Shown here one piece after another: positions 46,742 to 60,847 of a DNA stretch of 64,000 bases; position 1 is the first letter of the stretch; every line of letters begins with the position of its first letter. A program made the position numbers and the translations under genes. Source of the DNA: an uncultured Candidatus Binatia bacterium (GTDB lineage: Bacteria; Desulfobacterota; Binatia; UBA9968; JAJDTQ01); NCBI GenBank assembly GCA_965242525.1, contig OZ251459.1, forward strand, positions 3,328,001 to 3,392,000, given 5' to 3'. The notes under the pieces are model-generated. The model was given only the letters and a program-made list of their open reading frames with translations, was not told the DNA's origin and searched no databases.

Positions 46742-48280
46742 CTACTCCTTCCGTTGGCTCCGCGGGTCGTCCAGCGGCGTCCTGGGTCCGTCCAGGGCCA
46801 GCCGCCGGAAACGCGCCCGGTCCACCTTGAAGTCGTGGGCGTCGGTCTCCGGCCATTGGTAGAACGCGTCCGGGATCTTGTAGCGCGGCAGGGTCCGCCC
46901 GAGCCAGGCGGCCAGCGCCGCGGCGCCGGGACGCTCCCCCCGTGTCTGCACGAACGCCACGCACCGCTGGCCGAACTCCTCGTCGGGGATGGGCGCCACC
47001 ACCGCCCGGTCCACCCCGTCGTGGTCGGTCAGGGCGCGCTCGATCTCCTCGGGGTGGATGGTCTCGCCGCCGGAGAAGAAGCGGTTGTCGCGCCGGCCGA
47101 TGACCGTCAGGTAGCCGTCCTCGTCCACGCGCCCGAGATCCCCGGTGGCGAACCAGCCGTCCGGGGTCAGGGGACGCATCAGGCTCCCGCCCTCCACGTA
47201 GCCCATGAACAGGGTCTCTCCGGCCAACTGGATCTCCCCCTCGCCGCCGATCCGGAGGCGGCGGTACGGCAGCAGCTTCCCGGAAGTGAGCCGCTGGGCG
47301 GTGGTGGAACCGGGTCCCGCGGTAGCCACCTGGGAGGCCATCTCGGTGCAGCCGTAGCTGGCGAACACCGGCAGACCGCGAGCGCCCGCCCGTTGCAGCA
47401 GTTTCCGCGGGACCGGGCTGCCCCCCAGGACGATGCAGCGGAGCGAAGGGTAGCGCACGGACTCGGGCCGCTGCAACAACCTGTGGAGCTGGGTGGCCAC
47501 CACCGACAGGTGCGTGACCTCGTAACGGTTCAGGACCGCGTCCAAGGTCTCTCCCCGGTCCGGCATCACCACCGCGGCCCCCGCCAGCAGGCAGCGGAAG
47601 AGGATACCGAGCCCGCCCACGTGGTAGAGCGGCAGGTCCAGCAGCCAGCGGTCCCCGGCCGCCAGCGGCAGGTTCCGGTTGGATCCCAGGGCGTTGTAGT
47701 AGTGGTTGCCGTAGGAGTGGAGCACCGCCTTGGGCGCGCCGGTGCTGCCGGAGGTAAAGACGATGGTCGCGGCGCGGCCGAGGGGCATGGCGGAACCCTG
47801 GGTATCCTCGACCAAGGGATCCCTGTCCGCGGCGAATTTGCGGCCGGCATGGGATTCGGCAAGATCCATGTGCGTATCGGCGACCGGCGAGGCTCCGGCC
47901 GCGGCAAGGTCCCGGCCCCGGATCAGGGTCGCGCGGTCTCCGAGCCCCTGCTCGTCCGGGACCTGGGCCACCAGCTTCCGGCAGTCGATGCGCCGCAGCA
48001 GGTCGGCCACCGGGCGGTTGGGCAGGCGGGTGTTCATGGGACAGCACACCGCGCCCAGCCGGAGCAGCGCCAACAGCCAGACGAGGTAGTCCGGGCTGTT
48101 GGGCGCCAGTACGGCCACGCGCTCGCCGGGGGCGCAACCGGCCCGTCGCAGGGCAGCGGCCGCGGCGGCGACGCGGCCGCGGAGTTCGGCGAAGGAGAGG
48201 ACGCGGTCGCCGCGCACCACCGCGGGGCGGTCGCCGGAATGCTCGGCCGCTTCTTCGAGGGGGCAGCGGACCTCAGTCAT
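46742..48280 (-). CDS. menE: o-succinylbenzoate-CoA ligase
   Basis: FTSGSTGAPK, LPLYHVGG, SYGCTEMASQ, TGDLG, SGGETIHPEEIE; follows menC. Confidence 0.9.
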   Translation of the reverse strand: MTEVRCPLEEAAEHSGDRPAVVRGDRVLSFAELRGRVAAAAAALRRAGCAPGERVAVLAPNSPDYLVWLLALLRLGAVCCPMNTRLPNRPVADLLRRIDCRKLVAQVPDEQGLGDRATLIRGRDLAAAGASPVADTHMDLAESHAGRKFAADRDPLVEDTQGSAMPLGRAATIVFTSGSTGAPKAVLHSYGNHYYNALGSNRNLPLAAGDRWLLDLPLYHVGGLGILFRCLLAGAAVVMPDRGETLDAVLNRYEVTHLSVVATQLHRLLQRPESVRYPSLRCIVLGGSPVPRKLLQRAGARGLPVFASYGCTEMASQVATAGPGSTTAQRLTSGKLLPYRRLRIGGEGEIQLAGETLFMGYVEGGSLMRPLTPDGWFATGDLGRVDEDGYLTVIGRRDNRFFSGGETIHPEEIERALTDHDGVDRAVVAPIPDEEFGQRCVAFVQTRGERPGAAALAAWLGRTLPRYKIPDAFYQWPETDAHDFKVDRARFRRLALDGPRTPLDDPRSQRKE

Positions 48281-49364
48281 GCCGCGCCTCGCGCAACAGC
48301 GCGCAGTCGATGCGGTGGTCCCGGGCCAGGTCGTCGTTCCAGGACAGGGCGTCCGGTCGGAACCGGATGCGCGGCCGGACCACGTCGGCGTCGAGCCAGC
48401 GGTAGGTGTCGAGGCCCGCGGGGACTGCCGCGCCGGTGGAGTCCCAGGCGAACCCTGCCACCGCCAGCGTCCCGACGCCGCTCTCGAAACAGCCGCTCGC
48501 CACCGGGCGCACGCCCAGGGCCAGCGCCTTGGCGGCCCATTCCCGGGCCCTTGCCGCGCCGCCCAGGAGCGTGGGCTTCAACACCACCGCGCCCACCTCC
48601 TGGCGTCCTTCCAGGTCGTCGGGTCCGAGCTCCAACAGGCTCTCGTCCAGCCCCACCGGGATGCCGGTGGCGTCGAAGAACTCTCCCAGGCGCGCCGGGT
48701 CGCGCAGGGGCTCCTCCAGGTACTCGACGCCCGCGTCGCCCGCCGCCTTGCCGAAGGCCACCGCCTGCTCCAGGCTCCAGCTCCGGTTGGCGTCCAGCCG
48801 GAGGCTCACGCCTTGCCCCACCGCGGCCCGCACCGCCCGCGTCAACTCCGCGTCTTCCGCCGCCCCTCGACTCCCCACCTTGAGCTTGACCGCGCGGCAA
48901 CCCGCGTCCCCGAGTCGCGCGGCCTGCCGCAGCACTTCCTCCCGGGACCCCATCAGCAGACCGTTGACCGGGACTGCGCCGTCGAAGCCCGGCAACTCCC
49001 CGTCAGTCCCCGTGCGCATGCGCCGCGACAGGCTCGCCAGCGCGGTCTCCAGGCCGAAACGCACCGACGGCGAGGCCGCCTCGGGCGGCTCGCGGCCCAG
49101 CCACGATTCGAGGTCGCCGCCGCCGGGCTCGAACCCCGCGCCTCCCAGACGCCGGGCAAGGGCGGTGAACTCGGCCGCGGCGTCGTCCACGCTCTCGCGG
49201 CTGAACCCGGGCAGCGGCGCCGCGTCGCCCCAACCCCACGCCCCGGAATCCGCCTGCACCCGCACCAGCAGGCCCGTGCGCTCGCGCACCGCCCCGCCCG
49301 CCAGCGGCAGCGGCCGCGCCAGCGGCAGGCGGTAGCGAAAGATCCGGCAGCCCTCGATCCTCAT
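48273..49364 (-). CDS. menC: o-succinylbenzoate synthase
   Basis: APLPGFSRES, KLKVG, RLDANR, YLEEP, LDESL, LKPT. Confidence 0.92.
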   Translation of the reverse strand: MRIEGCRIFRYRLPLARPLPLAGGAVRERTGLLVRVQADSGAWGWGDAAPLPGFSRESVDDAAAEFTALARRLGGAGFEPGGGDLESWLGREPPEAASPSVRFGLETALASLSRRMRTGTDGELPGFDGAVPVNGLLMGSREEVLRQAARLGDAGCRAVKLKVGSRGAAEDAELTRAVRAAVGQGVSLRLDANRSWSLEQAVAFGKAAGDAGVEYLEEPLRDPARLGEFFDATGIPVGLDESLLELGPDDLEGRQEVGAVVLKPTLLGGAARAREWAAKALALGVRPVASGCFESGVGTLAVAGFAWDSTGAAVPAGLDTYRWLDADVVRPRIRFRPDALSWNDDLARDHRIDCALLREARHD

Positions 49365-49454
49365 GATGCTAAGGTTAGCCAGGCTAGGAGCCTGTCCGAG
49401 TAAGGAATCCTGGATTCCAGGTCAAGCCTAGAATGACCGGACGGAACTTCTCCC

Positions 49455-49480
49455 GTCATTCCCGCGAAAGCGGGAATCCA
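49455..49480 (+). repeat. dRS3-like palindrome
   Basis: GTCATTCCCGCGAAAGCGGGAATCCA. Confidence 0.85.
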
Positions 49481-49554
49481 GAGGAAGCGAGCCCCACTTC
49501 CCCGTGGCGGGTCGCTTCCCTTTCATCGTGTTCCATTTTATTTCTCCTTCCCCC

Positions 49555-49652
49555 TTTTCATTGGCTACTTCGCCAAGTATAATCTGTCTCAAGGGTAAAG
49601 CATGCCCTAACCGATGTCAATACCCGACAGTTTATTTTTGTCGAACTCGACA
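49555..49652. promoter_or_regulatory. overlapping opposed sigma70-like promoters and candidate operators
   Basis: + TTTTCA-N17-TATAAT (49555-49583); - TTGACA-N17-TACCCT (49620-49592); palindromes TTGGC-N6-GCCAA (49561-49576), TGTC-N7-GACA (49615-49629), TGTCGA-AC-TCGACA (49639-49652). Confidence 0.5.
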
Positions 49653-49659
49653 TTAAAGG

Positions 49660-50010
49660 ATGCTTGCTCTGTCTGAAATCTTTCAACAACGTTTAAGGGC
49701 TGCTAGGGGTACACGCGAATGGAGCCAAAGCGATTTGGCTAAACGCGCGGGTTTGCCGCCTAGCTCGATTGCCCATTTTGAAACCGGACCGCGCAAGCCG
49801 TCTTTCGAAACCCTGCGTCGCTTGGCTAATGCCCTAGAAGTTACGACCGATTATCTTCTAGGGAGAGTCGAAGATCCAGGTCTTGCCGAATCAGGAGATC
49901 CGCTCTTCCGTGATATTGGCAACCTGACCGGCAGTGATCGCGACCTAGCGAGAGACTTCCTCAAAATGTTGACGGAACGCAGTTCGGCTAAGCAAGGGAG
50001 GATCAAATGA
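49660..50010 (+). CDS. XRE-family HTH regulator (CapH-like)
   Basis: SQSDLAKRAG...IAHFETG.RKPS...LANALEVTTDYLLGR. Confidence 0.9.
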   Translation: MLALSEIFQQRLRAARGTREWSQSDLAKRAGLPPSSIAHFETGPRKPSFETLRRLANALEVTTDYLLGRVEDPGLAESGDPLFRDIGNLTGSDRDLARDFLKMLTERSSAKQGRIK

Positions 50011-50190
50011 ATGTGCCCTTGGTTTAGAGTTAGCCAAAAGGATGGGGGGAGCTATCCAGGGTTTTGAAATTCAACCTTGCCCGTCACCTCTCTTGAAATG
50101 GCAGGACTCCACGATATCGTCTGGAGCCGAAACTCGGCATCGCCACAGGGGTGTCAGGAATGCTGTCTGTACTGGGAAGTCATTTGCTGA
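50007..50190 (+). pseudogene. decayed ImmA/IrrE (CapP-like) metallopeptidase N-terminus
   Basis: ATGA overlap and GGAGG RBS, stop after 6 codons; shifted frames give LPVTSLEMAGLHDIV and EPKLGIATGVSGML, resembling LPVDP...GVSGML of this family; HExxH region absent. Confidence 0.55.
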
Positions 50191-50222
50191 GCAGATCGTT
50201 ACCGCTATAACGGAGTCATCAA

Positions 50223-51092
50223 ATGGCTACGGGAAAAAGCTCGACTGTCTATCGCGCCCTTAGCTTGGGTGCGGGAGCGCAGAGTTCTGTTTTAGCACTC
50301 CTGCTATCTCGATCCGACCCCCATTTAGCTAAGCTTGGGTATCACAAGCCCAATGCCGCCATCTTCGCTGATACCGGATGGGAACCTGAGTATGTGTATC
50401 GTCATTTGGACTGGCTTGAGGGACAGCTTCGGTATCCGCTGATCCGAGTGTCCGAAGGCAATCTGAGGACTAACCTTAAACAGGCCCGCACTGTGTCAGG
50501 TCATCGTTTTGTTGATGTCCCCTTATTCATAGTCGATGGGGACGGCAGGAAAGGGATGTTACGCCGACAGTGCACCACTCACTACAAAATCAGGCCGATT
50601 TATCGACAGATCCGAAAGCTTGCCGGAGGACAGCCTAGTCGACCGTTCCCCAAGGACACCCATGCTGAAATATGGCTCGGGATTTCGCTGGACGAGGTCG
50701 GCCGCATGAAGCCGAGCAAGGAACCGTGGGTAGAACATCGATGGCCGCTGGTGGACATCGGCATGACACGTCAAGATTGTATCGAATGGTTTCAGTCTGA
50801 GTATCCAGACCGCCATCTACCTCGGTCGGCCTGCGTCATTTGCCCGTATCGTTCAGACAAACATTGGTTGGAATTGAAACGACATGAACCTACTAGCTAC
50901 AAAGAGGCTGTGCAATTCGACCGCTGGCTCCGAAGAAGCACCGAGACACCTCTACGCAAACTGCTGAACGGTCGCCCATATCTGCATTCGGCTCGGCGAC
51001 CCCTCGCCAGCGTCATGAAGGAACGGAAGACGGAAGACGTGGGCGATATAAATAACTTCAACAATGAATGCGAGGGTCTCTGTGGTGTCTGA
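50223..51092 (+). CDS. Cys-rich PAPS-reductase/PP-loop-like protein (phage-type subfamily)
   Basis: LSLGAGAQSS variant PP-loop, IFADTGWEP, RQCT..YKI.PI, PRSACVICPY, terminal ECEGLCGV. Confidence 0.75.
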   Translation: MATGKSSTVYRALSLGAGAQSSVLALLLSRSDPHLAKLGYHKPNAAIFADTGWEPEYVYRHLDWLEGQLRYPLIRVSEGNLRTNLKQARTVSGHRFVDVPLFIVDGDGRKGMLRRQCTTHYKIRPIYRQIRKLAGGQPSRPFPKDTHAEIWLGISLDEVGRMKPSKEPWVEHRWPLVDIGMTRQDCIEWFQSEYPDRHLPRSACVICPYRSDKHWLELKRHEPTSYKEAVQFDRWLRRSTETPLRKLLNGRPYLHSARRPLASVMKERKTEDVGDINNFNNECEGLCGV

Positions 51093-52332
51093 AACAGAGG
51101 CTGAAACAATCAGGCCAAGATATTCCTTATATCCCTACCAGCGTCAGGTGCTGGCCGACGTTCTTCGTGCCCTATCGTTTTCCGAACGTCGTGTGCTTGC
51201 TCATCTTCCTACTGGCGCCGGGAAAACCAGAATCGCAGCCCATGCTGCTTGCCATATGCTCAACGATCACGACACAGACAAGTCTCTTGTAATTTGGTTA
51301 GCGGCCACAGAGGAACTCTGTGAGCAAGCAGCAGAGCAGCTTTCAAGGGCATGGATTTATCTGGGACGACGAGATGCCTGCATCCATCGACATTGGGGAA
51401 CAAAGTCGGCGGAACTACGGGACCTCCATTCGGGGTTTTTGGTGACAGGTCTTGCTAAACTTCGCTCCGCCGCTTTTTCAGATAACACTCTCCTTGCGCA
51501 TCTTGCACACCGCGCTGCTGCGGTCATTTTTGACGAAGCCCATCAGGCAATTGCAGCAACCTACTCCTTTATTACAGAGCAACTATGCAGTGTAAAGCCA
51601 CCTCTTCTTGGTCTTACAGCCACGCCGGGACGAACCGCGAATCTCACTGACGCAGATTATCTCCTTGCTAACATGTTCAATAATAACAAGGTTTCCATAG
51701 ACCCAAGGGGACACGGCAACCCTGTTACCTATTTGATCCAGAATCGCTACCTAGCCGATCCGCGATTTGTGTCTGTCAGATTCGATTCCGCCGCGTCGAT
51801 TATTGACCCTTTACCCGGTACAGACTACCGTACAGAAGACCTTGACGATTTGGGCCGCAGCCGCGAGCGCACGCGCAAGATTGTAGATCTCGCCGTGGCC
51901 GCAGCGGAGCATCACCCTCGTACAATCATGTTTTGCCCTTCCGTTGAGAGTGTTTTGGAATGCAACAAACTCCTTCAAGCCAGGTCGGTCAAGACGGCTG
52001 TAGTCACGGCTCACACACCAAAGGAAGAACGTCGTGAAATCATCGAGACGTTCAGAAGTAACGACAGAGAGCACATGCTAATACTTAATTATGGCGTGCT
52101 CACTGCAGGTTTCGATGCCCCTCGTACCCGCTGCGTCATCATCGCACGCCCGACCACTTCGCTGGTACTTTACTCGCAAATGGTCGGTCGAGCTATGCGT
52201 GGCCCGATGGCCGGGGGAAATTCCAAGGCCGAAATCTTTACGGTTACTGACACCAACCTTCCAGGGTTTGGTTCTGTGGTTGACGCCTTTACAAATTGGG
52301 AGGATCTATGGACGACCAACTCGCCGAATTAG
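51085..52332 (+). CDS. SF2 DEAD/DEAH helicase (ResIII-like)
   Basis: LPTGAGKT, DEAHQ, GLTATPGR, GFDAP, QMVGRAMRG; start uncertain (51064/51082/51085). Confidence 0.9.
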   Translation: MSETEAETIRPRYSLYPYQRQVLADVLRALSFSERRVLAHLPTGAGKTRIAAHAACHMLNDHDTDKSLVIWLAATEELCEQAAEQLSRAWIYLGRRDACIHRHWGTKSAELRDLHSGFLVTGLAKLRSAAFSDNTLLAHLAHRAAAVIFDEAHQAIAATYSFITEQLCSVKPPLLGLTATPGRTANLTDADYLLANMFNNNKVSIDPRGHGNPVTYLIQNRYLADPRFVSVRFDSAASIIDPLPGTDYRTEDLDDLGRSRERTRKIVDLAVAAAEHHPRTIMFCPSVESVLECNKLLQARSVKTAVVTAHTPKEERREIIETFRSNDREHMLILNYGVLTAGFDAPRTRCVIIARPTTSLVLYSQMVGRAMRGPMAGGNSKAEIFTVTDTNLPGFGSVVDAFTNWEDLWTTNSPN

Positions 52333-54179
52333 AAAACGCAGACCGCAGCCTTTTTCCGAGCGACTATACAGTACAGGCTCTTCGAGACAGTCGGTATCAC
52401 AATACCGCCTATGCCATTGCTGAACTCATTGATAACTCGATAGAGGCAAATGCTGCAAGAATCGATTTTCTTTGCATGGAAGAACTACAAAGCGTAGGCC
52501 CTCAGACACGGAGACGAATCTCAGGAGTTGCCATACTGGACGACGGTGAGGGAATGGAAGTAAGGACACTCCTTGAGGCTCTTAGATTTGGGGGAGGAAC
52601 ACGACACAACTCGGATAGAGGAATCGGCAAATATGGCATGGGTCTCCCCACATCCTCGATGTCTCAATGCAAGAGAGTTGACGTATGGACTTGGCAGGAA
52701 GGGGTGGACTCAACTTGGCATTCCTATATCGATGCGGACGATATTGCTAACGGGAACCACAAGGTGCCTGTTCCTGATCGACAACAAATACCCGAGACAT
52801 GGCGAATAGCCGGAAGCGATGAAATCTATGGACATCGCACCGGTACTCTTGTCGTGTGGAGCAAGCTAGACAAGGTTCAGTGGAAAACTAGCCGTGCGAT
52901 CATCGACAATACCTCCCGCGAGGTAGGTCGTATTCATAGGCACTGGATTCATGCGGAAATGACCAAAATACGAGTCGTTTCTTTCCCTGCTAACCGGCCT
53001 ACAGAGCCAGATACGGGTCCCTCCTATATTGTAGCAAACGATCCTCTTTACTTGCTGAAGCCCACTTCTACTCCTCACCCTTGGGATGATAAAGAGATGT
53101 TTGTAGAGTGGTGTCCCCCAAGAGAATACCCGTGTCAAGTTGAGGGTCGAGAACACAGGATTTGGGTAAAATATTCTATCGTGAAACCAGAGGCATTGAG
53201 GACGGAGAGAGTTACACAAAACCCAGGCAACGAAGCCCACGGGAAACACGCTAGACACAACATCGGGGTATCTGTTGTACGAGAAGATAGGGAAATTGTT
53301 CTTGAAGATGCTTTTCTCAGAGAGGGCGGCAGTACAGACCTTCCTCAGAATCGCTGGTGGGGTTGCGAAGTACTATTCTCTCGAGGTTGCGATGAGTTGT
53401 TTGGTGTAGATCATAATAAGCAAATGGTGGCAAATTTTACGCAGGCAGCGAAAACTCTTACCCGTGACGATCGTGACCCTCATGTGATCCTAGAGGAGAT
53501 GGGGATTGATGAAGAGGACATCATTCACAGGATAGTGGGAGACATCCGAAACCAAACGCGGGCCATGATGGATGCCATTCGGCAGATGTTTGAGCAGCGT
53601 CGAAAGTCGGTTGACGATGGTGGGCGTACCAGTAGGCATAGGAACCCAGAAGATAAAGCTATAAGGATCGCTACTGACGCGGATCGGGACGCTATAGCAG
53701 CCGGTGAAGAGCAGCCGACTAAGACTGATATAGATCGTGAGCAAATTCCGCCTCAAGAACGACAGGAGCGCCTCGTAGAACAGTTCATTGAAGCCGGACA
53801 ACCCGGCCAAGACGCGGAGAAGCGCGCGAAGCTGCTGATACAGGAAGATTTGTCCTACCAGTTCAGCTCGGAACAGGGAGACGGATTTCAGATTTTCAAG
53901 GTACGTTCTTATCAAGGAATTTTGCACATCAAGCTCAACACGGAGCATCCAATCTATGACCTTCTCAAACATATTGAAAATGATCTTCCGGAGAATGGAG
54001 ATGAGGCGGATCCCAGGTTTCAGGCCAGTGTTGCGATCAGATTATTGCTATCTTCCTGGGCTCGGATGGAAGACCAGACAGAGGCACAGCAGGAACGAGC
54101 ACGTATTCAAGATACTGCCATGAACTGGGGGCGTCAAGTAGACAAGGCTATCCGCCAACTGCGTGACAGAAGCCGATGA
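52308..54179 (+). CDS. MORC/GHKL-family ATPase (HATPase_c_3)
   Basis: AIAELIDNS, DDGEGM, GKYGMGL, GTLV; GGAGG RBS before ATG 52308. Confidence 0.88.
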   Translation: MDDQLAELENADRSLFPSDYTVQALRDSRYHNTAYAIAELIDNSIEANAARIDFLCMEELQSVGPQTRRRISGVAILDDGEGMEVRTLLEALRFGGGTRHNSDRGIGKYGMGLPTSSMSQCKRVDVWTWQEGVDSTWHSYIDADDIANGNHKVPVPDRQQIPETWRIAGSDEIYGHRTGTLVVWSKLDKVQWKTSRAIIDNTSREVGRIHRHWIHAEMTKIRVVSFPANRPTEPDTGPSYIVANDPLYLLKPTSTPHPWDDKEMFVEWCPPREYPCQVEGREHRIWVKYSIVKPEALRTERVTQNPGNEAHGKHARHNIGVSVVREDREIVLEDAFLREGGSTDLPQNRWWGCEVLFSRGCDELFGVDHNKQMVANFTQAAKTLTRDDRDPHVILEEMGIDEEDIIHRIVGDIRNQTRAMMDAIRQMFEQRRKSVDDGGRTSRHRNPEDKAIRIATDADRDAIAAGEEQPTKTDIDREQIPPQERQERLVEQFIEAGQPGQDAEKRAKLLIQEDLSYQFSSEQGDGFQIFKVRSYQGILHIKLNTEHPIYDLLKHIENDLPENGDEADPRFQASVAIRLLLSSWARMEDQTEAQQERARIQDTAMNWGRQVDKAIRQLRDRSR

Positions 54180-55033
54180 CTATGTACGGTTGGCCGGGAG
54201 ACTTGTTGGCCGGCGTTTGTTCACGTGCCCAATATTTGATTATCGCAGCGCCATACATCAAGTCCGACGCTCTTGTCAGGGTTCTAGCTGACGTTAATCC
54301 AGGAGCCTCTCTTGTCTGCATCACGAGATGGAATCCGCATGACCTCGTTACAGGTGCATCCGATGTGGAATGTCGTACCATTGTCATTAAGCGAGAAGGT
54401 TTCTTTAGACTTCATCCGTCACTCCATGCGAAATACTATCGAGCAGACAATGTGGTTTTAATTGGATCCGCTAATTTGACATCTTCCGCATTAGGCTGGA
54501 CACGTCAACCTAACCTGGAGATTCTTTGTCGTCCGGAAGATGATTTCGACGCTGACGCCTTTCAACAGTCTCTGTTCGATGGATCGAGAGAAATTGATGA
54601 TGAAGAGTTCAAATCTTGGAAATCCATTGCAGATATGACACTTCAAGGTAGGAGAAGAGTGGTTGACGAACCTCCTAGACTTGATACCTGGAGACCGGCG
54701 ACTCGCGACCCCAGACACTTGGAGTTCGCGTATCAGGGGAAAGACGATGAAATTGCTTCGTTCGACGAGCAACGAGCGGCACAGCGTGACATGCGGACTC
54801 TTCGGATTCCTCCAGGTTTGACCAGCGCGCAGGTTCGAACCTGGATCTCAGGTTGTCTTTTTGCCGCTTCCTTCACCAACACCATACTCCGGCTGCATAA
54901 TATGGAAAACTTAGATGTATCTCGTTCACTTGCAGACATCTACAAACTCAGCGTCACTGATGCACGAAGGGATATGGAAACCGTCCAAAATTGGCTTTCA
55001 TTCCTTGCTCCACAGACTTTGACTCGAACTTAA
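54176..55033 (+). CDS. phospholipase D-family (single HKD) nuclease-like protein
   Basis: IIAAPYI, LHAKYYRAD....GSANLT...N.E; ATGA overlap with MORC gene. Confidence 0.85.
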   Translation: MTMYGWPGDLLAGVCSRAQYLIIAAPYIKSDALVRVLADVNPGASLVCITRWNPHDLVTGASDVECRTIVIKREGFFRLHPSLHAKYYRADNVVLIGSANLTSSALGWTRQPNLEILCRPEDDFDADAFQQSLFDGSREIDDEEFKSWKSIADMTLQGRRRVVDEPPRLDTWRPATRDPRHLEFAYQGKDDEIASFDEQRAAQRDMRTLRIPPGLTSAQVRTWISGCLFAASFTNTILRLHNMENLDVSRSLADIYKLSVTDARRDMETVQNWLSFLAPQTLTRT

Positions 55034-55110: not shown

Positions 55111-56007
55111 TCACAGGACCCAACCGACGGAGAAGAGCGCGCTGTACAACAGGAGCAGCTTGGCCGTGTAAGCGAGTAACGGGTTCAACGAAGGCCCCTC
55201 GGAGACGAAGATCCTGCGGAAGGCCGGCAGCGCCGCGACCAGGACCGCGGCCGCGGCCGCGGACCAGGGACGACGGCCCGAAGCGAGGTAGAGGGCGAGG
55301 GGCAGCAGGCAGGCGGCCACCACCGCGGCCACGTATTCGGCGCGGACGAAGCCGCGTCCGAAACGCACGGCCAGGGTCCGCTTGCCGGTGCGCCGGTCCT
55401 CGTCCGCGTCCCGGAGGTTGTTGACCGCGAGGATGGCCACGGACAGCAGGCCCGGCGCCAGCCCGGCCGCCGCCACCGTGGCGTTGACGCTCAGGGTCTG
55501 CACGTAATAGGTCCCGGCCACCGCCACCGGTCCGAAGAACACCAGCACGAAGAGGTCGCCGAGCCCCAGGTAGCCCAGCGGCCGCGGTCCGCCGGTGTAG
55601 AGCAGCCCCGCGGCCACGGAGGACAGGCCGATGAGGGCCGCGGGCCATCCGCCGCGCCACACGAGGTAGAGGCCGCCCAGCAGGGTGAGGGCCAGCACCG
55701 CGGCGATGCCGCGCTTCATGGTCCCGGGGGCCAAGAGCCCGGCCTGGGTGACCCGCAACGGCCCCTGGCGGGACTCGGTGTCCGCGCCCTTCTCGAAGTC
55801 GAAGAGGTCGTTGGCGAAGTTGGTGGCCACCTGGATCAGCACCGCGCAGGCCAGCGCCGCCAGCGCCGAAGGCGCGTGGAACCCGCCGTCGTCCACGGCC
55901 ATGGCGGCGCCCACCACCACCGGGGCCACCGAAGCCCAGAGGGTCTTGGGTCTCGCCGCCAGGAACCAGACCGCGGCGGGGCCCGGCGGCTGGGCGCGGG
56001 TGCTCAA
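55111..56007 (-). CDS. menA: 1,4-dihydroxy-2-naphthoate polyprenyltransferase
   Basis: AARPKTL, NFANDLFDFEKGAD, YTGGP, NNLRDA..D...GKRTLAV. Confidence 0.95.
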   Translation of the reverse strand: MSTRAQPPGPAAVWFLAARPKTLWASVAPVVVGAAMAVDDGGFHAPSALAALACAVLIQVATNFANDLFDFEKGADTESRQGPLRVTQAGLLAPGTMKRGIAAVLALTLLGGLYLVWRGGWPAALIGLSSVAAGLLYTGGPRPLGYLGLGDLFVLVFFGPVAVAGTYYVQTLSVNATVAAAGLAPGLLSVAILAVNNLRDADEDRRTGKRTLAVRFGRGFVRAEYVAAVVAACLLPLALYLASGRRPWSAAAAAVLVAALPAFRRIFVSEGPSLNPLLAYTAKLLLLYSALFSVGWVL

Positions 56008-57743: not shown

Positions 57744-59501
57744 CTAGACCCCTTCCAGCGCCGCTTGCCGCAGGCCCATGTGGAGGCCGCGGTTTTCTTC
57801 GCGCCGGGTCCGCACCTCGATGAGGGTTGCCGCGGGTCTGCGCCGGGCCTCGTCGTAGGCCGCGGTGAACTCGTCGGTGGTCGAGGGTCGGGCGTAGGCC
57901 GCGCCGAACAAGGCCGCGGCGTGCTCGAAGGTCAGGCCGTGGGGGGCCGCGAAGTAGCGCTCGAACACGTCCGGGAACCCGGCGATGGGAAGGAACGAGA
58001 AAATCCCTCCGCCGTCGTTGTTCAGGATGACCACGACCAGGGGGGTACGGAGGTCCCGGGCGAGGCTCAGGGAGTTGAGGTCGTGCAGGAACGCCACGTC
58101 CCCCACCAGGAGCGTCGTGGGCCGGCCCAGGCCCCGGGCGAACCCCGCGGCCGTGGCGATGGCCCCGTCCACGCCGCTGGCGCCCCGGTTGGCGGCCACC
58201 GCGGGGGGCTCGTCGAGCCTTGGGCAACCAAAAGCGTCCATGTCGCGGACGGGCATGCTCGACGCCAGGAACAGCCCTTCGCCCGCGCCCATGCGGCGCG
58301 ACACGAGCCACGCCACCTTGGGCTCGTTCAAGCCCCGGTCTTGGTTGAAGCATTCGGCGAAGCCGCGCCCCACGCGCTCGGACGCCTGCCGCCAACCGGC
58401 CAGCCAGTCGGCGTCGCCCGCGGCCTGCCCGACCCGCTCCTTCAGGGACTCGCAGAAGGCCGCCACCGGCAGCCGGAGCCGCTGCGTGGCCCGGTGGATG
58501 GGGTCCTGCCGGTGGGGGTGGTCGTCCACCACCACGTAGTCACCGGGGCGGACCGCCTCCAGGTGGTCCATGAGCCGTCTCGAAGTCAACCGCCCTCCCA
58601 GATGGATCACCGCCTCGATACGGCGCCGCCGCATGAAGGTCTCGGAGAAGAGCAGGGTGTCGTGGTAGGGCACGGAGTTCCCGGGCCTGCCATCCAGACG
58701 GAGACCCGAGGTCACGTCGGGCAGGAGCGGCCAGCCCAGGGACACGGCGAGGTCGGCGGCGGCCCGGCGCGCCGCGGGGTCGGCGAGGCGTCCAGCCACC
58801 AGGATGCCGCGGGGTCGGCGTCCCGCCAGCGCCGCCAGCCGGTCCAAGGCCTCCCGGCTTGGCCGGGCGGACGCGTTCTCGTAACGGGTGTAGGGGCGCT
58901 CCCCGGCGCGCCAGGCTTCCAGCGGCGCAAGGCAGGGCTCCGGGTCCTCGCCCTCGTCCGTGGGCGCCAGAGGCTCGCGGAACATGCAGTTGAGATGCAC
59001 CACGCCGCCGGACGGACCGCGGCAACGGCTCACCGCCTGGTCGACCGTGGTCAGGACCACCGAGGGATCGACGCTCCGGGAAGGACACGGCAGGGTCGCG
59101 GACCATTCCGCATAGCCGCGGAAGAACCGGACCTGGTCCATGGTCTGGTTGGCCCCGGCGTCCTGGAGCTCCGGCGGGCGGTCGCCGCTCAGGACCAGCA
59201 GCGGCGCGCGCTCCAGCGACGCCTCCACCACGGCCGGCCACACGTTGGCCAGGGCGCTGCCCGAGGTGGTGACCACCGCGGCCGGCGCGCCCGCGGCCCG
59301 GGCGTGTCCCAGTGCGTGGAAGGCCGCGCCGCGCTCGTCGTAGTGGACGACGGCGCGGGCTTGGCGGTGGCGCGCTGCCGCCACTACGAGGGGCGCACTG
59401 CGGGACCCGGGGGCTATGCAGAAGGTGTCGATGCCGTTGCGGACCAGCTCTTCGACGAGCAGCCCCGCCCACAGGTGGTTCAGGTTGGCGGCCCCGGTCA
59501 T
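57744..59501 (-). CDS. menD: SEPHCHC synthase
   Basis: APGSRSAPL, DERGAAF, DRPPEL, NRGASGVDG, NNDGGGIF; ATGA overlap with menF. Confidence 0.95.
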   Translation of the reverse strand: MTGAANLNHLWAGLLVEELVRNGIDTFCIAPGSRSAPLVVAAARHRQARAVVHYDERGAAFHALGHARAAGAPAAVVTTSGSALANVWPAVVEASLERAPLLVLSGDRPPELQDAGANQTMDQVRFFRGYAEWSATLPCPSRSVDPSVVLTTVDQAVSRCRGPSGGVVHLNCMFREPLAPTDEGEDPEPCLAPLEAWRAGERPYTRYENASARPSREALDRLAALAGRRPRGILVAGRLADPAARRAAADLAVSLGWPLLPDVTSGLRLDGRPGNSVPYHDTLLFSETFMRRRRIEAVIHLGGRLTSRRLMDHLEAVRPGDYVVVDDHPHRQDPIHRATQRLRLPVAAFCESLKERVGQAAGDADWLAGWRQASERVGRGFAECFNQDRGLNEPKVAWLVSRRMGAGEGLFLASSMPVRDMDAFGCPRLDEPPAVAANRGASGVDGAIATAAGFARGLGRPTTLLVGDVAFLHDLNSLSLARDLRTPLVVVILNNDGGGIFSFLPIAGFPDVFERYFAAPHGLTFEHAAALFGAAYARPSTTDEFTAAYDEARRRPAATLIEVRTRREENRGLHMGLRQAALEGV

Positions 59502-60847
59502 TGCGGAAGGTTCAGGGCGCGGGTGAAGTGGCCGATCTTGTAGTCGAGCTCGCGCCATTCGTCCCCGGGCGCGGACCCGGCGACGATGCCCGCGCCGGCG
59601 AAGACCGAGAGCGTCGAGCCTTCCACCAGCCCGGAGCGGATGGCCACCGCGAACTCGGCCCGGTCGCGCCCCACCCAGCCCACGGGTCCAGCGTACCAGC
59701 CCCGGTCGAAGGGCTCGGTCTCGCGGATCCGTCGGACCGCCAAGTCCGTGGGGTAGCCTCCGACGGCCGGCGTGGGGTGCAGCGCGTCCACCAGGTCGGC
59801 GTCGCCCACACCGTCCCGAAGCACGCCCCGGAACGAGGTCATGAGGTGCTGGCACTGGCGCAGTTTCACCACCGACGGGCCGGCGTCCGCGCTCAGCGAG
59901 CGGCACAGGCGCACCATGCCCTCCCGCACGCCCCGGGCCACGTAGTCCTGCTCCCGCCGCTCCTTCTCGCTGGCCATGAGGTCCCGTTCCAGTTGCCGGT
60001 CCAGGGAGACGTCGTCGTCGCGCACGCGCGTGCCCGCAATGGCCTCGCACAGAACCTGCCGTCCGTCCCGGCGGTAGAGCCGCTCGGGCGAGACCCCGAG
60101 GAAGGCGCTACCGTATGGGTCCGGGATGAAGCAGAAGCGGTAGCAACGGGCCGCCCCGGGAGACAGGGCTTCGAGACACGCCCAGGGGTCCAGCTCCCCG
60201 GTGAACCCGAAGGTGGATCTCCGGGCGAGCACGAGTTTCTCCAGAGGCCCCTCGGACAGGAGGGCGAGGGTCCCGGTCACCGCGGCCTCCCAGCCGCTCC
60301 GGTCCGGCAGGTCCCGGCGCTCCCCCGCGGCCGCAGGGACGCCCTCCGAAGCCGCGGGATGGAACGCCAGCGTGTCCACCTCTTTCAGCAGGGCGTCCTC
60401 GGCGGTCTCCGAACACAGCCACTGGCAAGCGAGCATGCTGTCCCCGCCTCGTTGGCTCAACTCGAACCGCGGCAACACGAAACTGCAGGTAGCTAAGCCG
60501 CGCCAAGCCGGAGCGCACGCCCTCCCGCGGTCGAACCGCATTCCCCCGAAATAGCGCGTCCCCGCGCCCCCGGCGTCCAAGCGCCGGCGCAACTCCTCGA
60601 ACAGCGCATGGACGCCGGCCGGGCCGGCGCACGCCGTCATGTCCGCGGCGCCGACCCCGGCCACCTCCTCGCCGCCGTCCCGGTCGGCCCAGTACGTCTT
60701 GACGGCGCGGGGGTCCTGCGCCCGCAGCCATGCCAGGGCGTCGGTGGGCGGGATCGGGGTCTCCACCCGGACGATGCCGGCCGGGCCGAGCCGGGAACAC
60801 TCCCGCTGGATCCGATCCCGCAATCTCTCCCGCAGGTTGCGTTCCAT
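59498..60847 (-). CDS. menF: isochorismate synthase
   Basis: KLVLAR, SPERL, EAIAGT, KERREQ, LHPTPAVGG, RGWYAG, AGAGIV; start uncertain. Confidence 0.92.
   Translation of the reverse strand: MERNLRERLRDRIQRECSRLGPAGIVRVETPIPPTDALAWLRAQDPRAVKTYWADRDGGEEVAGVGAADMTACAGPAGVHALFEELRRRLDAGGAGTRYFGGMRFDRGRACAPAWRGLATCSFVLPRFELSQRGGDSMLACQWLCSETAEDALLKEVDTLAFHPAASEGVPAAAGERRDLPDRSGWEAAVTGTLALLSEGPLEKLVLARRSTFGFTGELDPWACLEALSPGAARCYRFCFIPDPYGSAFLGVSPERLYRRDGRQVLCEAIAGTRVRDDDVSLDRQLERDLMASEKERREQDYVARGVREGMVRLCRSLSADAGPSVVKLRQCQHLMTSFRGVLRDGVGDADLVDALHPTPAVGGYPTDLAVRRIRETEPFDRGWYAGPVGWVGRDRAEFAVAIRSGLVEGSTLSVFAGAGIVAGSAPGDEWRELDYKIGHFTRALNLPQ

Follow-up and report, generated by a model that had tools for sequence, protein, structure and literature searches.

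Four overlapping genes within a window of 64,000 nucleotides from an uncultured Candidatus Binatia bacterium (contig OZ251459.1 of assembly GCA_965242525.1, positions 3,328,001 to 3,392,000) encode a PAPS-reductase-fold enzyme, a RadD-like helicase, a MORC-like GHKL ATPase and a nuclease of the phospholipase D (PLD) family, and by a modest measure we favor the interpretation that they form a compact modification-dependent restriction cassette, related to the Ssp system and representing a variant of phosphorothioate-type restriction-modification (R-M). This interpretation draws upon gene content, intact catalytic motifs, folds, conserved gene order and co-evolution, as well as on evidence of horizontal transfer and on helicase-GHKL-PLD homologues being linked to sspABCD, from which we infer the modification of DNA, the identity of the mark, the protein that reads it and the restriction of phage. 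Positions given below are those of the window unless they follow the name of another locus. An earlier reading made from the letters of the window (hereafter the sequence-only reading) had described four co-oriented genes, each overlapping the next, and these were recovered with only the start of the helicase gene being moved (from ~51085 to 51064), the new start being the most likely one because homologues align from residue 1-2 of it. Consecutive genes overlap by 29, 25, and 4 nucleotides (nt), and the cassette consists of the following:

50223-51092, plus strand: phage-type PAPS-reductase-fold enzyme (gene 1), 289 amino acids (aa); phrog_424 7.5e-40, PADLOC SspD 2.2e-14
51064-52332, plus strand: RadD-like superfamily 2 (SF2; DEAH) helicase/translocase, 422 aa; NCBIfam RadD 1.2e-32
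52308-54179, plus strand: MORC-like GHKL ATPase, 623 aa, with a long C-terminal region; HATPase_c_3 5.8e-21
54176-55033, plus strand: single-HKD PLD-family nuclease (residues 1-125) followed by an all-helical C-terminal domain (126-285); HKD motif and predicted fold

The four genes are a conserved, mobile and co-evolving unit. The sequence-only reading had proposed a survey of homologues for conserved co-occurrence, and these were found to recur jointly: among 47 related loci fetched from named genome records, 34 carry the PAPS-reductase-fold, helicase, GHKL and PLD genes in the same order and with the same spacing, in at least six phyla. The taxa represented among the loci include Latescibacterota, Binatia, several lineages of Chloroflexota, Gemmatimonadetes, Acidobacteria, one Oceanicaulis metagenome-assembled genome (MAG) and others, and identities to the window proteins in the 34 loci range from 42 to 83% for the PAPS-reductase-fold enzyme, 53 to 79% for the helicase, 41 to 74% for the GHKL ATPase and 35 to 70% for the PLD protein. 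The other 13 loci comprise two whose contig ends after the third gene (L030, L039), five that are contig-end pieces or decayed fragments (L045-L048, L055) and six distant relatives (L049-L054). Beyond four near-identical Latescibacterota contexts, no flanking genes are common to the loci. In GC content the cassette lies beneath its two flanks in 32 loci out of the 33 for which both are available (L042 excepted), and in L028 it lies beneath the one flank present. Distance matrices of the four genes computed over 33 taxa were correlated with Mantel r values of 0.78-0.95, and 0 of 999 permutations reached the observed values.

Relatives of individual cassette proteins are abundant, with at least 1958 for the GHKL ATPase, the best 120 of which are 66-89% identical over the full length and unnamed, and at least 7414 for gene 1, the best 120 of which are 71-100% identical, unnamed and without a precomputed Pfam domain. 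This abundance, together with strong conservation across phyla, points to recent and intense horizontal spread. Close copies (L009-L044) were found almost only in MAGs of uncultured Latescibacterota, Binatia, Dehalococcoidia/SAR202, Caldilineaceae, Gemmatimonadetes and Acidobacteria. Such a mix of taxa is typical of marine sponge-associated consortia and, if this origin holds, would suggest that the cassette spread within one habitat. Viral contigs of IMG/VR yielded only distant relatives of the GHKL protein (≤36% identity) and no close copy of the cassette. Fragments of the GHKL and/or PLD genes, or a GHKL match confined to residues 130-591, were observed in Caldilineaceae and other Chloroflexota MAGs (L047:8001-8933, L055:8001-9021, L041:8390-9754), and these fragment-only loci indicate that the cassette has decayed in some lineages.

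The connection to Ssp emerged from more distant relatives of the GHKL protein (30-42% full-length identity), which defined a set of 11 metagenome and viral loci (L049-L054 and L059-L063). An Ssp gene was in view in 10 of these 11 loci, the one without being a 9.9-kb contig (L051) in which no Ssp gene was found, and trios near PADLOC-confirmed Ssp genes were 30-47% identical to the trio of the window. In L049 the order is SspA-SspB-SspC-SspD (PADLOC 2.4e-98, 1.8e-100, 1.7e-300 and 1.1e-106, respectively), followed directly by helicase-GHKL-PLD, and in L059 it is SspD-helicase-GHKL-PLD, while in L060-L063 the pair or trio has SspC, SspD or both no more than 8 kb away. Three further loci (L050, L053, L054) present SspG-SspH-helicase-GHKL followed by a nuclease-like protein of 360 aa, and there SspD and SspC are encoded on the opposite strand. 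SspABCD clusters embed homologues of the window trio, sometimes together with SspE-like or SspFGH genes. A variant arrangement was seen in L052 (1316-9824), where SspC-SspD precede two GHKL paralogues with a 155-aa open reading frame (ORF) between them and without a helicase.

Plasmids gave a similar picture. The GHKL protein matched 28 plasmid records, 13 of them over at least 80% of the query, and the best 10 were inspected (H26-H31, H33 and H35-H37; H32, a second Trichormus strain, was left out). An annotated PAPS reductase gene lies within 9 kb in 8 of the 10, and 7 of these 8 also carry a gene for a DUF4007 protein, or one for a protein longer than 1000 aa at the place that SspC would occupy, or both. 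PADLOC confirmed SspD and SspA on plasmid A of Trichormus variabilis ATCC 29413, and SspB, SspC and SspD along with an SspE-like protein on a Hymenobacter plasmid. The two exceptions are L084, whose gene table is incomplete and shows a cysteine desulfurase only, and L088, with a giant FtsK/SpoIIIE protein that resembles SspH and no PAPS gene in view. The Trichormus locus (L079, 325261-333737) contains SspD, a DndB-like protein of 768 aa, helicase, GHKL, PLD and SspA in one co-oriented run. A different association was observed in L042 (2380-6731) and L044 (2476-6736), where a phage-type PAPS domain is fused to DUF6339 and followed by helicase-GHKL-PLD; PADLOC treats DUF6339 as component C of its candidate system PDC-M33, for which the A and B components (PDC-M33A, PDC-M33B) lie upstream, so that the fusion links this candidate system to the cassette. 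No mention of DUF6339 was found in the literature searched.

Since 10 of the 11 loci and 8 of the 10 plasmids are linked to Ssp or PAPS reductase genes, the helicase-GHKL-nuclease trio is a regular companion of sspBCD. Three different occupants of the slot before it are seen, namely SspABCD, a phage-type enzyme on its own, and the same type of enzyme fused into PDC-M33. In PMC8092258, 2211 of 2678 sspBCD clusters are reported without sspE or sspFGH and further restriction partners are proposed; the partners named in the sections at hand of that paper, PMC11931770 and PMC10853773 are SspE and SspFGH for Ssp, and DndFGHI and PbeABCD for Dnd. The corresponding part of PMC11931770 names no synthesis genes other than dnd, ssp and type 4 brx, and the partners it gives for them are DndFGHI, SspFGH and SspE.

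Gene 1 itself belongs to a phage-type clade and is not an orthologue of SspD or DndC, as judged from sequence comparison, and on this point the original comparison of its PP-loop enzyme with SspD and DndC needs correction. True SspD proteins keep the PP-loop SGGKDS, whereas homologues of gene 1 have S-L-G-A-G-x-Q-S and the window protein has S-L-G-A-G-A-Q-S. In a maximum-likelihood tree, a branch supported at 100/100 put 8 SspD sequences apart from 19 others, which came from cassettes, phages and the fusions, and gene 1 of the window was sister to that of a second cassette locus, L018 (99/92). The clade occurs in 51 records from widely differing phages at 30-42% identity, among them Pelagibacter phage HTVC034P, Geobacillus phage PK5.1, Thermus phage P23-77, Salisaeta phage SSIP-1 and Mycobacterium abscessus prophages; three aligned phage proteins were 38-42% identical to gene 1 over the full length and shared every signature motif (S-L-G-A-G-x-Q-S, R-Q-C-T, S-x-C-x-x-C-P-Y and E-C-E-G-x-C-G-V). 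In the three phages inspected, the homologues are solitary, lying in replication/recombination modules without SspA, SspB or SspC. These stand-alone phage 'PAPS reductases' (PHROG 424; P23-77 ORF3, HTVC034P gp12, PK5.1 gp43) thus have the motifs of gene 1 and fall on its side of the 100/100 branch but, unlike the cassette enzyme, have no neighboring helicase, GHKL or PLD gene. The literature search found no functional test of them.

The Pfam PAPS_reduct match of gene 1 (19.3 bits) is under the cut-off of 22.5. Its AlphaFold2 model (pLDDT 87) was closest in fold to the PAPS reductase 7rge (Z 13.1, rmsd 3.6 over 161 residues), with the [4Fe-4S] thiolase NcsA, TilS, CysH and APS reductase also near. 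Four cysteines (C117, C204, C207 and C287) are invariant in 16 homologues and C283 is nearly so; three of the invariant residues are placed in R-Q-C-T and C-x-x-C, as in [4Fe-4S] sulfurtransferases, and the fourth lies in a flexible C-terminal tail, E-C-E-G-x-C-G. Chain C of PDB entry 21fy ('PptA', 270 aa), a solved PAPS-reductase-like protein on which the literature search gave nothing relevant, was the best PDB sequence match of both true SspD (5.2e-9) and the gene 1 profile (2e-4).

The helicase matches ResIII/DEAD/Helicase_C in Pfam and RadD in NCBIfam, the latter with 113 bits, far under the equivalog cut-off of 720. Its best solved relatives were RadD (6jde, 2.2e-39), then the SauUSI helicase (3.6e-17) and type I R subunits, and its matches in PADLOC and NCBIfam were otherwise to the generic SF2 parts of PbeA (PADLOC 3.9e-20), DinG and DpdF. 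Motifs I, II and VI (PTGAGKT, DEAH and QMxGRAxR) are invariant in 17 sequences. The GHKL protein, whose ORF is open from a TTG at 52296, retains the ATP-site residues E39, N43, D78, G82, G107, G110 and G112 invariant in 20 sequences, and its profile matched MORC2 (1.7e-9), MORC4, MORC3, SMCHD1, MutL and TopoVI-B in the PDB over residues ~25-130 only. The resemblance to MORC is shown only for this N-terminal GHKL part, and to this extent the MORC ATPase named by the sequence-only reading stands; the remainder of the protein gave no Pfam match to the S5 transducer domain Morc6_S5, which occurred in 20% of the members of one similar ESM Atlas cluster, and in ESM Atlas the protein otherwise fell into generic "ATP-binding protein" clusters only.

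For the third member of the trio, the assignment as a single-HKD PLD nuclease was upheld by the motif and by the match of the predicted fold. Of the motif HxK(x)4D(x)6GSxN, residues H84, K86, G97, S98 and N100 are invariant in 16 homologues, with the Asp position varying, and the AlphaFold2 model (pLDDT 89) matched the PLD domain of SauUSI (6.1e-4), the NgoAVII R protein (8.4e-4) and Zucchini in Foldseek, the first two being ATP-dependent restriction enzymes. The Pfam PLDc_2 score of 24.5 bits is under the cut-off of 27, and matches to DrmC are weak (PADLOC 7.5e-7; NCBIfam 20.3 bits vs. a cut-off of 133). For the C-terminal domain (126-285), Foldseek gave no fold family and ESM Atlas only "PLD family" clusters. 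The predicted complex of the GHKL and PLD proteins scored 0.02 vs. a mark of 0.32, a value that speaks neither for nor against binding.

Searches with PADLOC v2.0.0 (2023), NCBIfam release 20 (June 2026), Pfam and PHROG placed the cassette relative to described systems, and no model in PADLOC or NCBIfam names it. The sequence-only reading had likewise stated that the combination matches no named system; this held for both libraries, with the qualification that the cassette is not unconnected, being a streamlined relative of an Ssp-linked module. Like Ssp, it joins a PAPS-reductase-fold enzyme to an ATP-dependent restriction module; Ssp comprises SspA, SspB, SspC and SspD, whereas the island bearing the cassette is without SspA, SspB and SspC and has an enzyme of another clade. 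PADLOC found no match to SspB or SspC among the island proteins and none to SspE, SspF, SspG or SspH at E≤0.01 for the six island ORFs. DndC, DndD and DndE likewise had no match there, and PbeB, PbeC and PbeD are absent, with the helicase matching only positions 242-426 of 672 in the PbeA profile, so that membership in Dnd/Pbe was rejected. PbeA (a Dnd-linked fusion of an HKD nuclease and SF2 helicase) and SauUSI, which matches both the cassette helicase and the PLD model, do combine an HKD/PLD nuclease with an SF2 motor as the cassette does; the cassette, however, encodes nuclease and motor in two different genes, and a gene for a GHKL ATPase stands between these. Three further candidates were rejected: type 4 BREX, given no match to BrxP, BrxC, PglZ or BrxL and a sole BREX match of the helicase to BrxHI (1.3e-5); DISARM, given no DrmA or DrmB and the weak DrmC match of the PLD protein; and MZA, given an MzaB match that is confined to the N-terminal GHKL part and reaches 63.8 bits where 850 are required.

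A further class of relatives is formed by the operons that combine MORC or paraMORC proteins with SFII helicases, to which the cassette corresponds in having a GHKL protein with intact ATP motifs beside an SFII helicase and a nuclease. In the sections at hand of PMC2292703 (Iyer, Abhiman and Aravind, 2008), operons of MORC/paraMORC, SFII helicase and nuclease (including HKD) are predicted to be laterally mobile R-M systems, a MutL-like role is proposed for prokaryotic MORCs, and neither Dnd nor phosphorothioation is mentioned. The modifiers in those operons, according to the same sections, are DNA methylases; the cassette has a PAPS-reductase-fold enzyme in that slot. The available text of PMC12839542, PMC10853773, PMC12914056 and 10.1101/2025.09.30.679545 does not describe the four-gene set, and our literature search found neither the four-gene form nor the trio as a partner of Ssp; supplementary tables were outside this search, and a prior description is possible. 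The kind of system is therefore known (sulfur-mark R-M, and MORC-helicase-nuclease R-M), while its four-gene form and the trio as an Ssp partner appeared in no library or paper searched.

The cassette lies on an island that is foreign to its host. Between 49.4 and 55.1 kb of the window, GC content drops from the ~71-72% of the host to ~51% over six plus-strand ORFs, confirming the lower GC originally noted; by region it is 0.48-0.54 over 49500-54999 and 0.67-0.75 in the flanks, and for the cassette itself it is 0.508, with 0.709 and 0.720 in the two flanks. The island sits between menC and menA, inside a vitamin-K2 (men) operon and, as had also been pointed out, on the strand opposite to the genes it interrupts, the flanking genes all being on the minus strand:

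46742-48280, minus strand: AMP-binding, menE-like gene (domain match, flank)
48273-49364, minus strand: MenC_N/MR_MLE_C gene, menC (domain match, left flank)
55111-56007, minus strand: UbiA, menA-like gene (domain match, right flank)
57744-60050, minus strand: thiamine pyrophosphate enzyme, menD-like gene (domain match, flank)

A search of 12 genomes of the same genus found the island in none, and in all 12 menC lies next to menA; the gap between the two genes at these empty sites is 4 to ~320 bp (measured in five genomes), and the sole match of the island sequence to the 12 genomes is a short host repeat. The island is thus a strain-specific insertion, and it is horizontally acquired. No tRNA, integrase or flanking direct repeat was found at its borders, and alignment with the empty same-genus sites revealed no clear target-site duplication. 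A tRNA-Ala(GGC) called by ARAGORN at 55822-55896 on the minus strand was set aside as a probable false positive, being inside the menA/UbiA ORF in GC-rich coding DNA. The host spacer between menC and menA contains, where the island starts on its left side, a GC-rich palindrome resembling a repetitive extragenic palindromic (REP) element (49448-49492; core ATTCCC-N8-GGGAAT), which has ~58 matches in its own genome and many in same-genus genomes.

Upstream of gene 1, the island contains a regulatory region that was compared with that of L018, the closest relative for which context is available, where an intact capH and then capP precede the cassette:

49555-49583, plus strand: promoter-like site (TTTTCA, 17-nt spacer, TATAAT), the best of the region at 10/12 in the scan
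49615-49629, plus strand: inverted repeat TGTC-N7-GACA, just upstream of the capH start and conserved in L018
49639-49652, plus strand: inverted repeat TGTCGA-AC-TCGACA, just upstream of the capH start and conserved in L018
49660-50010, plus strand: CapH-like XRE-family helix-turn-helix (HTH) repressor, 116 aa; PADLOC capH 6.2e-27
50007-50222, plus strand: capP remnant, a pseudogene of an IrrE/ImmA-type metallopeptidase, identified by alignment with L018 capP

The promoter-like site contains a further inverted repeat, TTGGC-N6-GCCAA (49561-49576), in a block conserved upstream of L018 capH, and the three inverted repeats are candidate CapH operators. Promoter region and capH together share ~77% nucleotide identity between the window and L018, and the two CapH proteins are 85% identical. 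The PADLOC capH match covers profile positions 5-101 of 103, almost the full length, and is accompanied by a Pfam HTH_3 match (6e-16). L018 capP (PADLOC capP 2.9e-66), in contrast, aligns to the window only at its beginning (~50 nt) and, weakly, at 50121-50165 (E 0.017); the window copy has a stop after 6 codons, and ~650 bp are gone relative to L018, leaving ~215 bp. A 73-aa ORF at 50042-50263 had no family match in Pfam, PADLOC, NCBIfam or PHROG and is probably not a gene. Elsewhere in the genome, capP-like matches are weak only (best 6.4e-16, partial) and lie in ORFs of 395-682 aa. CapH and CapP regulate CBASS and other defense operons; in CBASS, CapP cleaves CapH after DNA damage and the operon is switched on. 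The pair requires both an HTH repressor and an intact metallopeptidase, and in the window it is incomplete. Because it is absent from 33 of the 34 other cassette loci (L018 being the one with it), the pair is an accessory, and the XRE regulator under which the sequence-only reading had placed the operon is accordingly a CapH-type HTH gene, though an accessory one whose CapP partner is a pseudogene here.

In the mechanism that we propose, gene 1 would mark the DNA of its own cell with sulfur, a phosphorothioate in the backbone being the likeliest form, and the sulfur would come from a housekeeping cysteine desulfurase; the role of marker is assigned to it because of the analogy to SspD and DndC and because of its position in the operon. 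A one-gene modifier is plausible, since members of the same clade stand alone in phage replication modules. The RadD-like motor, the MORC-like GHKL protein, which would clamp DNA or form loops in it at the expense of ATP, and the HKD nuclease, which would act as a dimer, would constitute a restriction module that reads the mark and nicks or cuts DNA recognized as foreign. Their assignment as an ATP-driven scanning and cutting machine follows the analogy to SauUSI and PbeA, which unite PLD and SF2 domains, and to the MutL-like role of prokaryotic MORCs. The trio may either attack unmarked DNA, as SspFGH does, or be stimulated by the mark, as SspE is. Transcription would be under the CapH-type repressor and would normally be relieved by the CapP protease, the gene for which is broken in this strain. 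The division into a modification module and a helicase-GHKL-PLD restriction module, as first suggested, gains comparative support from the trios beside sspABCD, with the reservation that gene 1 is not SspD or DndC.

Several observations weigh against a modification-dependent restriction cassette. Modification of DNA, nuclease activity or a phage phenotype has been observed for no member of the cassette. Gene 1 scored 51.8 bits (2.2e-14) on the SspD model PDLC02782 vs. 303-395 bits for true SspD, to which it is only 23-25% identical, and it has lost the SGGKDS loop including its Asp; ATP-pyrophosphatase chemistry of the SspD/DndC type therefore cannot be assumed. SspC (PDLC02781) was not found in the host's own genome, which is 98.96% complete, the control having matched in 1 of 14 genomes, and SspB (PDLC02768) also gave no match there, although this model matched no control genome either and the absence of SspB is not established. 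A recognizable phosphorothioate-reading domain was found in none of the components, the C-terminal parts of the PLD and GHKL proteins having received no assignment. Common descent and the outlying L042 and L044 inflate the Mantel values, decayed copies exist elsewhere (L047, L055), and with capP a pseudogene in this strain the operon may be locked off.

This last point raises the alternative that the copy in the window is transcriptionally silent or being lost, with an intact CapH that cannot be removed, which we regard as rather doubtful while taking it seriously. The intact capH (6.2e-27) followed by a ~215-bp capP remnant with an early stop, the intact capH-capP before the cassette in the sister locus L018, and the weak, partial character of capP-like matches elsewhere in the genome all fit such a state; yet the four structural genes are full length with intact catalytic motifs, indicative of continuing selection, 33 of the 34 other loci are without the pair, so that expression does not generally depend on it, and read-through or a second promoter is possible. 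A different alternative, the main rival to a marking role of gene 1 although we assign it a still smaller chance, is that the genes serve defense without self-marking, the PAPS-fold protein being a sensor or effector in a Type IV-like or abortive system directed against phages with a homologous enzyme. Its substrate might then be nucleotides, or phage DNA carrying sulfur or other modifications. The degenerate PP-loop and the closer relationship of the enzyme to phage proteins than to SspD are compatible with this, as are an island without SspB and SspC, a genome in which SspC was not found, best fold matches among which are PAPS/APS reductases, enzymes whose ligand is a sulfonucleotide and not DNA, and the fusion of the L042/L044 domain to DUF6339 of PDC-M33. 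The slot upstream of homologous trios, however, holds a complete SspABCD, for which marking is the simplest analogy; the enzyme is present in all 34 loci with the region upstream of the helicase in view, as expected of an obligatory antidote or modifier; and the location of the phage homologues in replication modules also fits DNA modification.

Two alternatives that deny the genes a role in immunity or a common function fare worse. That the cassette is a mobile DNA-repair or recombination module of RadD-like, MutL-like and nuclease components is very improbable: the best solved relative of the helicase is indeed RadD (2.2e-39) and the GHKL ATPases do include MutL, but the RadD score of 113 vs. 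720 bits, foreign GC, strain-specific and patchy occurrence across phyla, and a defense regulator of the CapH/CapP type argue otherwise, as does the company of the homologues, which are tightly linked to Ssp genes and, on plasmids, found with toxin-antitoxin modules, transposases and further genes of restriction. That unrelated genes came together by chance as a mosaic, which the sequence-only reading had named among the outcomes that would refute its proposal, can be discounted practically altogether; nothing was found in its favor beyond two of the four Pfam matches being under the gathering score, and the recurrence of one gene order with one spacing in 34 loci that span at least six phyla, the correlated divergence of the four genes in the Mantel analysis and their overlaps refute it.

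A modification-dependent restriction cassette is thus the reading that we carry forward, and its possible meaning extends beyond this genome. We suggest, tentatively and with less than even confidence, that gene 1 is a one-protein DNA sulfur modifier, that the cassette is the smallest phosphorothioate-type (or a new thio-type) R-M system, and that the trio is a third, as yet unnamed restriction partner of sspABCD beside SspE and SspFGH. The question is directly testable because the Ssp-linked trio has culturable carriers, for example Pannonibacter phragmitetus BB, with the trio on a plasmid, and Trichormus variabilis ATCC 29413, with it on plasmid A. If the suggestion is true, a restriction partner would be named for a part of the sspBCD clusters that are without one (2211 of 2678 in the relevant portion of PMC8092258), and a single protein of the PAPS-reductase fold would supply the self-mark without SspB/SspC or DndD/DndE, implying a simpler biochemistry of sulfur modification. 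A widespread phage family annotated only as "PAPS reductase" would acquire a testable function, and the hundreds of solitary phage 'PAPS reductases' would modify phage DNA for self-protection, in mimicry or evasion of systems of this type.

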